The notes under the pieces were generated by a model. It saw nothing but the letters and a program-made list of their open reading frames with translations, did not search any database and was not told the origin of the DNA. A DNA stretch of 64,000 nt. Source: Bacteroidota bacterium (GTDB lineage: Bacteria; Bacteroidota; Bacteroidia; CAILMK01). Position 1 is the first letter of the stretch, and each line of letters opens with the position of its first letter. The position numbers and the translations under genes were made by a program. The stretch lies in assembly GCA_026391915.1 (NCBI GenBank), contig JAPLCZ010000257.1, positions 5,691 through 69,690 of the forward strand, in the 5' to 3' direction. Below are positions 8,980-47,541 of this stretch, piece after piece.

Positions 8980-10575
8980 TTACTCAACCACCAATTTACT
9001 AACGACCCTCACCTTCTCATTTTGTACTAAGATAAAATACATACCATCTGGCAATGCAGAAACATCTATTTCTTTAATGAGTCTGCCTTCTGAGTTTGGG
9101 GTTTGGTTGAGTTGTATAAGTTGTTTGCCTAGTATATCTGAAATAGTAATACTGGTGTTGGTTTGCGGTAGATTATTTACTTCTAAAGTTATGGTGGAGG
9201 TTGTAGGGTTGGGGTAAAAAATAAAATTAGAAAAAGTTTTGGATTCTTGTACGGCAGTGGTTGAATCTCCTAAATAAGCAATATAAACATTCTTATTTGC
9301 TGGAAAATTGGTGGTATCTGTAGAATCACGAATTGAACCACCAAAAACATATATGCCATTGCCTAATGAAACTGAGCAATTACTTATACTACCTTGACCA
9401 ACTCCTTTTTTAGAAATAATATTACCTTGATTATTTAAATTTAAAAGGCAGATATAATGATTGCCGAATGTTGCAAAATCAGAATCTTTGCTGTAAACCA
9501 AACAAGAAACAATATAACCACTATCATCATCTAATTCTACAGAAATGGCATAATCACTATGTGTACTACCATAAGATTTAACCCACTCCTTTTTTCCATA
9601 TCTATCTACCTTTACAATAAAGGCATCTGTATAACCTAAATTATTCTTTAAATCTCCATCATTGGAAAGAGTATATCCAACGGCGATGTAACCCTTGTCT
9701 TTGGTAATTTTCACATCTGTGAAGACATCCTCGCCAGCCCCACCATAGGCATAACCCCAAAGTTTATTTCCGTTTTTATCCAGTCTAATAAGCCATCCAT
9801 CCCCACCCCAATGAACATTTTTTACCACACTATCATACTGAGACGACCCGTTTGCACAAACTATAAATCCTGAATCCTGAGTAACTAATATCTTTTCCGC
9901 ATATTCATAAGTACTAGTACCATAAGTTTTTTGCCAAAGCATTTCGCCAATTTTATTTAATTTAATAATCCAGATATCAGCACTTATATAATGATATTTC
10001 ACATCACCACTATCTGATTTTGTATATCCGGCGAGAACTATTCCACTATCTGGTGTTATTGCAACAGCATAAGGTTCATCTTCTTGATAACCCCCGTAAG
10101 TTTTCTGCCAAATAATACTTCCATTTCTATCTAACCTGAGAATCCAAAAATCAGCACTACCTAGATGACGCGTTATATCACCATCACCCGAATAAGAACT
10201 CCCCACAACTATATAACCACTATCTTTGTATAATATTATAGAAGTAATGTATTCTTGATTGCTTCCTCCATAGGTTTTCTGCCACTCCATTTTCCCCTGA
10301 TTATCTAATTTAATAAGCCAATAATCCCCATGATAATAGTCATCGCTTCCAGTGTCATGAGAGTAAGAAATATCCTTATCATTTGAGTAGGTTACGCAGC
10401 CAGCTAATATGCCACCATCTGGGGTAGCAATAATGCTTTGCACATAATCATCTTTAGAGCCTCCAAACTGTTTCTCCCAGATTACCTTTTTATTGTCAAT
10501 TGCACCATATCCATTGCTTACAAGACCAGCCATAATCATAAATAAACATAAAATTGGTTTTAGTCCGCTAACCAT
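8980..10575 (-). CDS. SBBP (beta-propeller) repeat protein with T9SS C-terminal sorting domain
   Basis: Signal peptide from the internal Met (MVSGLKPILCLFMIMAGLVSNGYG). At least 7 repeats of the WQKTYGGSxxDxxxSIxxTxDGGYIxxGxTxSxDGD type. C-terminal FIFYPNPTTSTITLEV...GMYFILVQ Por tail. The longer ORF-track start at 10641 would overlap the upstream gene. Confidence 0.65.
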   Translation of the reverse strand: MVSGLKPILCLFMIMAGLVSNGYGAIDNKKVIWEKQFGGSKDDYVQSIIATPDGGILAGCVTYSNDKDISYSHDTGSDDYYHGDYWLIKLDNQGKMEWQKTYGGSNQEYITSIILYKDSGYIVVGSSYSGDGDITRHLGSADFWILRLDRNGSIIWQKTYGGYQEDEPYAVAITPDSGIVLAGYTKSDSGDVKYHYISADIWIIKLNKIGEMLWQKTYGTSTYEYAEKILVTQDSGFIVCANGSSQYDSVVKNVHWGGDGWLIRLDKNGNKLWGYAYGGAGEDVFTDVKITKDKGYIAVGYTLSNDGDLKNNLGYTDAFIVKVDRYGKKEWVKSYGSTHSDYAISVELDDDSGYIVSCLVYSKDSDFATFGNHYICLLNLNNQGNIISKKGVGQGSISNCSVSLGNGIYVFGGSIRDSTDTTNFPANKNVYIAYLGDSTTAVQESKTFSNFIFYPNPTTSTITLEVNNLPQTNTSITISDILGKQLIQLNQTPNSEGRLIKEIDVSALPDGMYFILVQNEKVRVVSKLVVE

Positions 10576-45311: not shown

Positions 45312-45621
45312 CCTCACCCCAAAAAAACCTCATCCGTCCTTTGGACACGTTTGCTGCGCAGAACCCTTTGGGTTTCTCCAAAGGAGAAGGAAACTGCCTC
45401 CGAAGTAACCCTAACTGTAAGTTAGGTGGCGGTAAAGTCCTCTCCTTTGGAGAGGATTTAGGTGAGGTTGAAACTTGCCAATTGTTGTCATCACCCTTCT
45501 CTTTTTTAAGACCTCACCCCAACCCCTCTCCAAAAGAGAGGGGCAAGAAAAAAGAAATGCACCATCAAGTTGGCAGGGGGTAAAGTCATTCTCCTTTGGA
45601 GAAGGATTTAGGATGAGGTAA
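45312..45621. repeat. Two tandem composite palindromic elements bounded by CCTCACC...GGTGAGG inverted termini
   Basis: Internal perfect palindromes: TTCTCCAAAGGAGAA (45374), TCCTCTCCTTTGGAGAGGA (45439), CCCCTCTCCAAAAGAGAGGGG (45518), TTCTCCTTTGGAGAA (45586). A 41-bp direct repeat GGTAAAGTC...GGATTTAGG(T/A)TGAGGT occurs at 45431 and 45581. Confidence 0.6.
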
Positions 45622-45769: not shown

Positions 45770-46726
45770 TTATAAATTTACTTCAATATCACCGGGTAAA
45801 TTGGGGTCAAGATTTTTTACAATAAGGTATCTGCCATCTGCCACATTGCCCAGTTGCGGTGCATGAACCACAATGTTTGATACCCTTGGAGGCACATCAA
45901 AAAACACAGTTGGGTTAGTTTCGCCTTTTTCATGTGCAATATATACACGCAGCGTAGCATCGCTAATGTTGCTGAAATAAGCATCATCGGTTGTTTTGAA
46001 ACTGTGTTTGCAAATGGTAAAAACCTGCCCACCATTTAAGTGTTTGGTAAATGTTTTTTGTGGCTTTTGTTGCAGGGTTTCCATATCAAAGAAATTGGTG
46101 ATGGGGTCCAGATTATCACTGTATTGCATAATCAAACCACCATAAACATATTGCAAAGCATTAGCAATGGTAGTGCATATATTGGTTACGGTGCCACTAT
46201 CCTGCCCACCGGTGCTAATGTTACCTTGCTGGGTGTTGTAGGCAAGTAGCAATAAATCATAATAGGCATCAACATCAGTCTTAACAAGATTGAGTAGAGG
46301 GTAATTTCCTAAAACAATACTTAAGGAGTGTACTGCCCCAAGTCGGTCAGTTTGTTTGCCTTGGGTAAAGGGGTTGTGCCCATTGGCAAAAATGATTTTG
46401 TATTCATCTGTAAAATCCCTGTAGGTTTTCTGAATTTCAAAGTCCCAGTCGTTCACTTTTTGGGTGAGCCCTTTTAAAAGATTTTTCTTGGCGGTGGTAC
46501 TACCCACCTTAACATTTGTTTGCGCTACCCTGTTATCATTTGCATTGATTAGCAAAAGATGTTTGGGGTGGTAAAAATTGTAGAGCCCATCAATGGCGGG
46601 GCTAATGGTTCTGTTTGCCTCTAAGGCGGCATCTGAAAAAGAGCTAAGTTTAATAGCCCTAGTGAAACTTTTTTGGATGGATGCTTTAAAAGCATTCTTT
46701 GCTAAATCCGATTTTTTTGCTGTCAT
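45770..46726 (-). CDS. Hypothetical cytoplasmic protein (318 aa, no recognisable domains)
   Basis: Long ORF with coding-like composition, no signal peptide, convergent with the giant gene. Confidence 0.55.
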   Translation of the reverse strand: MTAKKSDLAKNAFKASIQKSFTRAIKLSSFSDAALEANRTISPAIDGLYNFYHPKHLLLINANDNRVAQTNVKVGSTTAKKNLLKGLTQKVNDWDFEIQKTYRDFTDEYKIIFANGHNPFTQGKQTDRLGAVHSLSIVLGNYPLLNLVKTDVDAYYDLLLLAYNTQQGNISTGGQDSGTVTNICTTIANALQYVYGGLIMQYSDNLDPITNFFDMETLQQKPQKTFTKHLNGGQVFTICKHSFKTTDDAYFSNISDATLRVYIAHEKGETNPTVFFDVPPRVSNIVVHAPQLGNVADGRYLIVKNLDPNLPGDIEVNL

Positions 46727-46922
46727 GAGAATTAAAATTTTTGTTTTTGTTTATAAAATTATTTTTTTATTTCCCCTATTAACGGAGCTTATTTTAAAAT
46801 TATTGTAAGCGGATGAAAATATATTTTAATTATTATTTTAACCACAGTAAATTTTATTGCATGGCAGATAATATTTTTTTCAGAAAATTTTCCTTGCCCC
46901 TAATTCCTTGATTTGGTTTTAT

Positions 46923-47157
46923 TGCCTGCCATTAACAGCAGGTGATAAACTGGCGTATGTAATAGGGCTTCCTTTAGCGGAAGCTATTAGATTGGTGGGT
47001 GTAGATGAGCTGCTGTTAACGGCAGCTCATCTACTAACGTGTTTTATAGAGCTGCTGTTAATAGCAGCTATAGTAATGAGATGTTTCAATCAGGTGCTGC
47101 CAACGGCAGGTGGCAGAATGATATCATTTTATGACCTGCTGCTAATAGAAGGCAGTA
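46923..47157. promoter_or_regulatory. Array of 6 hairpin-forming inverted repeats with ~42-43 bp periodicity (consensus GCTGC-TGTTAAYR-GCAGC)
   Basis: Hairpin positions: 46923 (CCTGC..GCAGG), 46969 (GCTTCC-tttagc-GGAAGC), 47007 (GAGCTGC-tgttaacg-GCAGCTC), 47049 (AGCTGC-tgttaata-GCAGCT), 47094 (CTGCC-aac-GGCAG), 47135 (CTGC..GCAG). Between the yraN 3' end and the start of the 318-aa hypothetical gene. Confidence 0.55.
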
Positions 47158-47187
47158 TAAACACGGAATTAGCGGAGTTTTATTTCC

Positions 47188-47541
47188 TTAGCCCGCAAAG
47201 GCATCCTCAATATGATACACCTCGGTTTTGCCATTCATTAAAACAATGGAAATAATGTCAAATCTAATTTCAGCATCAAGATTTTTTTCTTCAAGATAAA
47301 CGGCAGCAGCATTAATAAGGTTCTTCTTTTTAGCTGCAGAAACTGCTTTCTCTGGGAAGCCATAGGCAATGCCTGTGCGGGTTTTTACTTCAATAAAAAT
47401 AATTGTGTTTTTATGGTTGGCAATAATATCCACCTCAAGCTTGGCAGTGCGCCAATTGGTCTCTAAAATGGTGTAACCCTTTTTGATAATAAAATCAACC
47501 GCAGTTTTTTCTCCGCTTGCACCCGCTTGAGTATTATTCAT
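47188..47541 (-). CDS. yraN: YraN-family (UPF0102) endonuclease-like protein
   Basis: GEKTAVDFIIKKGYTILETNWRTAKLEVDIIA...IIFIEVKTR is the typical YraN/Holliday-junction-resolvase-like fold signature. Confidence 0.7.
   Translation of the reverse strand: MNNTQAGASGEKTAVDFIIKKGYTILETNWRTAKLEVDIIANHKNTIIFIEVKTRTGIAYGFPEKAVSAAKKKNLINAAAVYLEEKNLDAEIRFDIISIVLMNGKTEVYHIEDAFAG

Follow-up and report, generated by a model that had tools for sequence, protein, structure and literature searches.

A 64,000-nucleotide stretch of a Bacteroidota contig (JAPLCZ010000257.1; hereafter the window) carries, upstream of a gene for a 318-amino acid (aa) protein, an array of six dyad-symmetric units that follow one another in an exact 42 base-pair (bp) register. 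Some two dozen other uncultured bacteria almost certainly show the same pairing of such an array with a gene of this family, and array and gene form one conserved, co-inherited module. We favour, with a probability of roughly 0.4, the reading that the array works at the DNA level, as a cognate set of phased dyads resembling an operator or the sopC site of plasmid F.

The array covers positions 46914-47165, contains no insertion or deletion and ends 187 nucleotides (nt) before the gene (45770..46726, minus strand; Table 1). It falls within the 461 bp of non-coding DNA that separate the ATG of this gene from the stop codon of the co-oriented yraN. A first-pass annotation, made from the sequence letters, had described six inverted repeats upstream of an unknown gene at a spacing of about 42-43 bp, one of them a GCTTCC/GGAAGC variant. 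This description held, the spacing being exactly 42 bp and the variant forming unit 2, in register. A repeat search placed five units in a single register, at 46923, 47007, 47049, 47091 and 47133 (spacings of 84, 42, 42 and 42 bp), and the gap at 46965 is the position filled by the variant. In the autocorrelation of the window array lag 42 ranks first (56% identity, z 4.3); Tandem Repeats Finder (TRF) did not detect this array. When the six units are aligned without gaps, 75% of the cells pair, as compared to 65.8% in shuffled versions (2/500), and sliding the partners against each other lowers the pairing to 27-55%. Among the six units, eight of 13 stem pairs have changed on both sides. The outer arms are unit-specific (GTAGATGAG, TAATAG, TTTAT) yet still complementary. 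Both strands of the array fold far better than shuffled sequences (z -7.0 and -7.4). Unit 3 is the best preserved, its arms (47001-47017 and 47018-47034, 17 nt each) being 94% complementary, and units 5 and 6 (47082-47165) are degraded copies. The core CTGCYRTTAAYRGCAG is found four times in the array and, with two mismatches, once elsewhere in the 64 kilobases (kb), against a chance expectation of 0.2. Within the window the palindrome is therefore not a common dispersed repeat, the outcome that would have gone against the first-pass proposal.

Homologous loci, designated below by L and P numbers, were gathered by an exact-protein look-up, a genome scan and a metagenome scan. In the upstream regions of 18 further distinct loci TRF identified one clean array each, co-oriented with the gene (Table 1). 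No period other than 41 or 42 bp was seen among the arrays found; their copy number varies from 2.5 to 9 and they end 63-400 nt before the start codon. Where TRF gave no match, lag 42 still tops the autocorrelation in L008, L011, L026 and L029 (z 3.3-3.6) and, weakly, in L030. In two of these loci, L011 and L026, the repeat search brought out AT-rich palindromic copies spaced by 42 or 84 bp. Homologues at 20-40% identity are nearly always preceded by an array of their own. The proteins encoded at array-bearing loci are 17-60% identical to one another and their hosts comprise Flavobacteriales, Chitinophagales, Bacteroidia, Ilyomonas and one Verrucomicrobiales metagenome-assembled genome (MAG). 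The array sequences themselves are unrelated between loci; even for three paralogues of a single Bacteroidales MAG, only the coding regions align. Conservation of the gene-plus-array pairing across so deep a family supports the view that the array is the functional partner of the gene downstream.

The boundaries of the module are apparent from L014 and L015, two paralogous loci in one MAG whose proteins are 95% identical. The duplicated segment begins about 55 nt upstream of the first unit and spans array, spacer and gene; the module therefore consists of a leader, the array, a spacer and the gene. The two genes differ by 35 synonymous and 13 non-synonymous codons, indicating that the family gene is under purifying selection. 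Abutting the leader of the L014 module is a 187-bp fragment (L014 4307-4493 versus L015 2916-3102, 76% identity) that is homologous to the C-terminal part of the gene next to L015, which encodes a cargo protein of the type IX secretion system (T9SS). The module may have been duplicated into, or beside, a cargo-gene paralogue.

Some traits of the arrays vary from locus to locus. Metagenome contigs often begin or end inside an array (L005, L007, L017, L018, L022, L029, L036), and the near-identical loci L027, L028 and L032 hold 6.4, 7.1 and 7.4 copies, as compared to 8.3 in L012; the arrays are therefore assembly-breaking and probably length-polymorphic. Two unit variants alternate with a super-period of 82 or 84 bp in L005, L014, L019, L020 and L035, so that the unit of duplication, or of function, may be a pair of units or sites. 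A palindromic core, GTAAC(G/C)GTTAC, is common to L013, L024, L025 and unit 2 of L012, a subclade that crosses phyla at 30-43% protein identity; a related sequence, GGTAAGCTTACC, is found in L015.

The 318-aa protein matches no entry in the Pfam, PHROGs, NCBIfam and PADLOC profile libraries. It is thus as uncharacterised and as devoid of recognisable motifs as it had first appeared, and no profile assigns it to a well-known housekeeping family. A word-indexed protein search returned the protein itself (a hypothetical protein from a "Bacteroidetes bacterium" MAG) and one weak relative. Remote homology and structure prediction, the course recommended by the first-pass annotation, proved more informative. 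An exhaustive HMMER scan identified 604 cluster representatives (clusters at 50% identity) at E<=1e-3, 335 of them at E<=1e-10. Nearly all members are 313-320 aa long (about 316), match over their full length and are some 30% identical to the query; those that bear a name are all "hypothetical protein" and come from MAGs or metagenomes, and the 57 members checked contain no Pfam domain. The AlphaFold2 model built on the family alignment is confident (pLDDT 95, pTM 0.72) and predicts a hairpin of two helices of about 59 residues each (43-101 and 143-201), short connecting helices and a C-terminal beta-sandwich or jelly-roll (225-317). Foldseek searches of PDB and BFVD yielded no full-length relative of this fold; TM-scores normalised to query length are at most 0.28 and reflect domain-level similarity only. 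The one match of a sequence-profile search of the PDB, a weak one to the coiled-coil filament protein EspA (E 0.0018), probably reflects coiled-coil composition. The family is, in sum, large and undescribed, being absent from Pfam, NCBIfam, PHROGs, PADLOC, PDB and cultured organisms.

In the reading that we favour, the array would act as double-stranded DNA and present, ahead of the promoter of the gene itself, dyad sites four helical turns apart. A protein that forms dimers or oligomers would gather on these sites cooperatively; the most plausible candidate is what the adjacent gene encodes, with its elongated coiled-coil/jelly-roll shape. The gene's own product is the likeliest binder because it is the only locus-specific candidate and because the arrays differ between paralogues in one genome. 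The outcome would be either an autogenous, switch-like control or a nucleoprotein complex of the sopC kind. Of the "iterons or cooperative operator arrays" initially proposed, the operator array is thus retained as the favoured reading; iterons are not, since the units are 42-bp palindromes and not direct repeats of 17-22 bp.

Several findings point to a duplex site. The period of 41-42 bp amounts to four turns of B-DNA (4 x 10.25-10.5 bp) and has been retained despite very deep divergence. Dyad symmetry extends to within 0-2 nt of the centre in 15 of 18 arrays, the symmetric centres including GTTAAC in the window, AAGCTT in L015, TTCGAA in L019 and TAACGGTTA in L013, L024 and L025. Such symmetry through the centre favours a duplex site because a hairpin loop does not need it. 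(In the mean of all arrays, the positions 2-3 nt to the left of the dyad centre are enriched in A and those 2-3 nt to its right in T.) Deviations from perfect pairing in the stems show no wobble bias: read in the gene sense, G·U pairs number 29 and A·C pairs 38, or 11 and 18 when unique variant types are counted, a pattern that seems unlike that of selected RNA helices on either strand. Arrays with 10-23% GC, and those of L012 and L025, keep the 42- or 41-bp period without any RNA-folding signal. Finally, the stretch from array to ATG contains a canonical Bacteroidetes promoter (TTTG-N19/20-TAnnTTTG) in L014 and L015, which places the array at about -95 to -400. The window spacer (46727..46913) presumably holds the promoter of its gene as well; it contains no exact match to the canonical motif, and no terminator-like site is found on its minus strand.

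Other findings weigh against a DNA-level role. The intervening promoter was found in only two loci, which are related to each other. The family is not basic (median pI 6.3) and a recognisable DNA-binding domain is absent from the 318-aa protein. The palindromes differ between L014 and L015 though the proteins are 95% identical, and within one array the arms change on both sides, as in the unit-specific outer arms of the window, something that a sequence-specific dimer does not need. The units contain no 10.5-bp A/T harmonic, the reason for which we also discarded nucleosome-like wrapping of the DNA. Last, all arrays are polarised in the same way with respect to the gene (there are 30 occurrences of AAAAC in sense and two in antisense orientation; A-runs number 64 and T-runs 10), which suggests a strand-specific, possibly RNA, role. 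Sigma-54 upstream activating sequences were considered separately and dropped, near-matches being visible by eye in L019 and L020 only, with nothing consistent.

A bolder proposal, which we advance tentatively and consider unlikely as it stands, is that an elongated coiled-coil/jelly-roll protein of unseen architecture polymerises on a fast-evolving cognate array, its subunits following one another in a fixed register of 41-42 bp or nt (about 14 nm). If true, such a filament would represent a new single-gene, self-contained module of protein/nucleic-acid recognition, unrelated to ParB, ToxN, AbiF or Cas proteins, and a programmable nucleoprotein filament of this type could serve defence, addiction or chromosome organisation in Bacteroidota.

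The polarity of the arrays is one of the points in favour of the main rival explanation, which is possible but somewhat doubtful: a module resembling the type III (ToxIN) toxin-antitoxin (TA) systems or AbiF. Here the array would be transcribed in the gene sense into repeated structured units. These, perhaps once cut at an A-rich linker, would bind the protein and either neutralise it or regulate it; the protein itself would be a toxin or a defence effector with a novel fold. The published criteria for type III systems describe such a layout, in which a tandem array precedes a single protein gene in the same orientation. Besides the sense-strand polarity, the A-rich linker YAAAAC seen at 8 of 14 loci, the compensatory variation of the arms within arrays and the occurrence of orthogonal arrays on paralogues of one genome all fit this explanation, as do the patchy, multi-copy distribution of the family, which recalls a selfish or defence gene, its variable neighbourhoods and the TA genes near L035, the P0012 locus and L016. 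In the window, transcription of the co-oriented yraN would read into the array. Two further type III criteria, a Rho-independent terminator between array and gene and an endoribonuclease of the ToxN/AbiQ fold, have no counterpart here. The window spacer contains no terminator, and the spacers, 63-400 nt long, hold a promoter in two loci; the protein is unrelated to ToxN/AbiQ or to Abi_2/HEPN, has no nuclease motif and is not basic. The arrays themselves also fall short of what an RNA would be expected to display: G·U pairs are not in excess of A·C pairs, the palindromes are loop-less, four arrays have no RNA-folding signal, for 11 of 18 the better fold is that of the antisense strand, and no Rfam family is matched by the window array or by the arrays of 12 other loci. 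Pairing of the array with its own mRNA, as antisense or in the manner of type I systems, was also rejected, the longest complementarity being 8-12 nt and its positions inconsistent.

Open reading frames (ORFs) of 65-145 aa run across some arrays, and gene callers have annotated a number of them (window 46908-47255, plus strand; L006 2277-2714; L033 2298-2600; L017 3-275). A repeat-encoded peptide, such as the 115-aa product of the plus-strand ORF in the window or those of the ORFs in L006, L017 and L033, was rejected on the ground that 41-bp periods break the frame and that the units are palindromic. We regard these ORFs as by-products of the repeats because their 14-residue periodicity follows from the 42-bp period of the DNA.

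An improbable explanation for the arrays is that they are structural or contingency elements which extrude as cruciforms or undergo replication slippage, their copy number or supercoiling tuning the promoter without a dedicated binder, in the way of a rheostat or a phase-variation device. Near-perfect palindromes with AT-rich centres would suit such a role, and so would the different copy numbers of L027, L028, L032 and L012, the frequent breaks of assemblies inside arrays, the concerted evolution of units and the alternating 82/84-bp super-periods. This explanation, however, leaves unaccounted for the fixed 41-42 period across phyla and the fixed polarity, and offers no reason why this gene family alone carries such arrays; moreover, several arrays are too imperfect, or their centres too AT-poor, for ready extrusion. 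Passive RNA hairpins, serving as stabilisers of 5′ or 3′ untranslated regions or as terminators (of yraN, in the window), are more improbable still. The window array does begin 22 nt past the yraN stop codon, on the same strand, and both of its strands fold strongly. However, an array always accompanies the family gene although the genes upstream differ in identity and orientation; U-tracts are absent, a promoter lies downstream of the array in L014 and L015, and stabilisers need no strict period.

Chance association of the gene with a plasmid or phage iteron remnant, a degenerate CRISPR or a dispersed REP-like repeat is effectively refuted by the comparative data and retains only a minimal likelihood. 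The likeness is superficial, being limited to the order of tandem repeats, an AT-rich stretch and a gene for a protein of about 316 aa, and it does not explain a pairing kept in about two dozen loci. The iteron remnant had been one of the first-pass suggestions. It finds no backing in phage, plasmid or viral homologues, the neighbouring genes of the window are housekeeping genes and the predicted fold, a helical hairpin plus jelly-roll, is not the winged helix of Rep proteins. An iteron origin with its Rep was rejected on these grounds, on the difference between 42-bp palindromes and 17-22-bp direct iterons and on the lack of a replicon context. The first-pass verdict against CRISPR was upheld: whole units, including the part that would be the "spacer", are homogeneous within each array, and the window has no cas genes. 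REP or BIME elements were set aside on the evidence of the single two-mismatch match outside the array in the 64-kb window. A genuine CRISPR array does exist in L025 (1-503), with a 76-bp period and a repeat of about 47 nt resembling that of Bacteroidota type II-C systems (GTTGTGATTTGCTTTCG…ACAAC); it precedes the 41-bp array by about 240 bp and provides a useful contrast between the two types of array.

Table 1. Features of the window and period classes of the arrays found at homologous loci.
Feature	Position or loci	Strand	Description
318-aa protein gene	45770..46726	-	ATG start; ORF call, N-terminus aligns with family N-terminus
Spacer between array and start codon	46727..46913	-	AT-rich, about 28-32% GC; degenerate extra half-unit at 46852-46866
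Unit 1	46914..46955	-	gene-proximal; CCTGC-CATTAACA-GCAGG with outer TTTAT/ATAAA arms; dyad centre 46933/46934
Unit 2	46956..46997	-	compensatory variant TAATAG-GCTTCC-TTTAGC-GGAAGC-CTATTA
Unit 3	46998..47039	-	best preserved; 34-bp palindrome GTAGATGAGCTGC-TGTTAACG-GCAGCTCATCTAC; centre 47017/47018
Unit 4	47040..47081	-	TATAGAGCTGC-TGTTAATA-GCAGCTATAG
Unit 5	47082..47123	-	diverged copy GTGCTGCC-AAC-GGCAGGTG
Unit 6	47124..47165	-	distal, diverged: CCTGCTGCTAATAGAAGGCAG; 22 nt from yraN stop codon (47188)
yraN	47188..47541	-	co-oriented with the 318-aa gene; UPF0102, E 1.5e-25
Period-42 arrays	L005, L006, L009, L010, L014, L015, L016, L019, L022, L033, L035		upstream; TRF
Period-41 arrays	L002, L012 (near-identical L027, L028, L032), L013, L020, L024, L025, L031		upstream; TRF

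The window neighbours of the 318-aa gene are yraN, rlmH, a thioesterase gene, map and fabD. Elsewhere, gene neighbourhoods are not conserved among homologous loci, and the upstream genes vary in identity and orientation. The suggestion of a plasmid or phage origin was not borne out. Searches by tblastn with the window protein and a central family member gave no match in collections of 50,697 phage and 72,556 plasmid records, and a scan of IMG/VR confirmed no family member. Family loci sit on contigs of up to 2 megabases, and no par genes occur in the contexts of the examined loci. TA and mobile-element genes cluster near some members (L035 1661-4907, the P0012 locus, L016 4759-5279); they encode HicB-like (two copies), RelB-like, HTH_3 and ParE-like proteins, an IS200/IS605 Y1 transposase and a HEPN/nucleotidyltransferase pair. 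The family gene of L020 is followed, after about 2.5 kb, by a group II intron (RF02001, RF01998) that has a reverse-transcriptase ORF (9100-9396, 9484-10467). The first-pass idea of a tightly regulated accessory gene is partly sustained, insofar as the operator-array idea is itself partly supported and the family has a patchy, multi-copy spread in variable neighbourhoods; an accessory or defence-like character fits this distribution.

Of about 20 loci, at least 7-8 have a gene with a T9SS C-terminal sorting domain (Por_Secre_tail) directly beside the family gene, in varying orientations. These neighbours include the convergent gene for a giant 6776-aa protein in the window (24863-45193, plus strand), L026 1-1188, L009 2852-3907, L015 2916-3986, L016 5514-7508 and 9240-10208 and L037 761-3538; the P0004 locus is a further case, with PorZ next to it. 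Cargo genes of the T9SS may be commoner beside the family gene than in the genomic background. On the 3′ side of the 318-aa gene GC-rich hairpins (…TCCTCTCCTTTGGAGAGGA…, …CCCCTCTCCAAAAGAGAGGGG…) are repeated at 45428-45470, 45512-45546 and 45577-45620. They give the impression of a small dispersed palindromic repeat distinct from the array; a similar element is present upstream of the L016 array.

The strict 41-42-bp palindrome array is a non-coding signature that marks a specific protein/nucleic-acid partnership. If the DNA reading is true, the module would bring a DNA-binding fold not known before, together with orthogonal operator arrays that diversify rapidly and could be put to use in synthetic regulation. 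If instead the array acts as RNA, it would define a third, structurally unrelated branch of type III-like RNA-repeat TA or defence systems in Bacteroidota, a group in which, to our knowledge, such systems are poorly known. On the practical side, gene callers put spurious ORFs on the arrays and assemblies break at them. No description of the module was found in the literature; a preprint that mentions type III systems and repeat arrays (bioRxiv 10.64898/2026.09.22.753630) may contain a prior one.

Among known systems, the closest precedent for the DNA-level reading is sopC of plasmid F. It consists of 12 repeats of 43 bp, and SopB binds a 16-bp inverted repeat contained in each of them (PMC3177203). 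The two share tandem direct repeats of about four turns (43 versus 41-42 bp), an inverted repeat in each unit, a copy number between several and a dozen and the proximity of a gene for the binder, actual or presumed. Unlike sopC and the ParABS systems in general, the module lacks homologues of ParA and ParB as well as a plasmid setting, and the fold of its protein is unrelated to ParB. Its array lies upstream of a single gene, whereas sopC lies downstream of its operon, and its palindromes fill most of the unit and vary within the array. Cooperative repeats that lie upstream of the gene for their binder and control it are also known from the centromere/operator arrays of ribbon-helix-helix proteins (ParR-parC, omega heptads) and from further autoregulated operator arrays. 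Those repeats, however, measure 7-20 bp, at one or two turns, and involve small binders and a partner NTPase.

As to RNA-based systems, the repeats of the type III TA systems known (ToxIN, CptIN, TenpIN) are 31-62 nt long and number 1.9-5.6 per array (PMC3401426). The module resembles them in its co-oriented tandem array upstream of a single gene, its cognate specificity, the presence of several loci per genome and its A-rich linkers. It differs in having a protein twice the size and without the ToxN fold, no detectable terminator, a long spacer that can hold a promoter, near-perfect palindromes without wobble bias and a higher copy number (2.5-9, at 41-42 nt). AbiF (Abi_2/HEPN), with its abiF RNA motif or RCd22, sets a precedent for type III-like systems built on other folds, in that upstream repeated stem-loops neutralise a non-ToxN protein of about 300 aa (PMC12373285). 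No Abi_2 domain is present in the query or in 57 family members, and the abiF motif (RF03085) matches neither the window array nor 12 other loci. REP and BIME elements are likewise imperfect palindromes, of 35-40 bp, and can cluster in tandem in intergenic DNA. They are dispersed in hundreds of copies and alternate in orientation, whereas the palindrome described here keeps to a single site within the 64 kb and goes with a single gene family. The module thus fails at least one defining feature of every known family considered (type III TA, AbiF, ParABS/sopC, iteron, CRISPR, REP). As far as the tools used can tell, its protein family, strict 41-42 period, whole-unit palindromes and phyletic setting are undescribed; the arrangement as such, a phased repeat array coupled to its own gene, is of a known kind.

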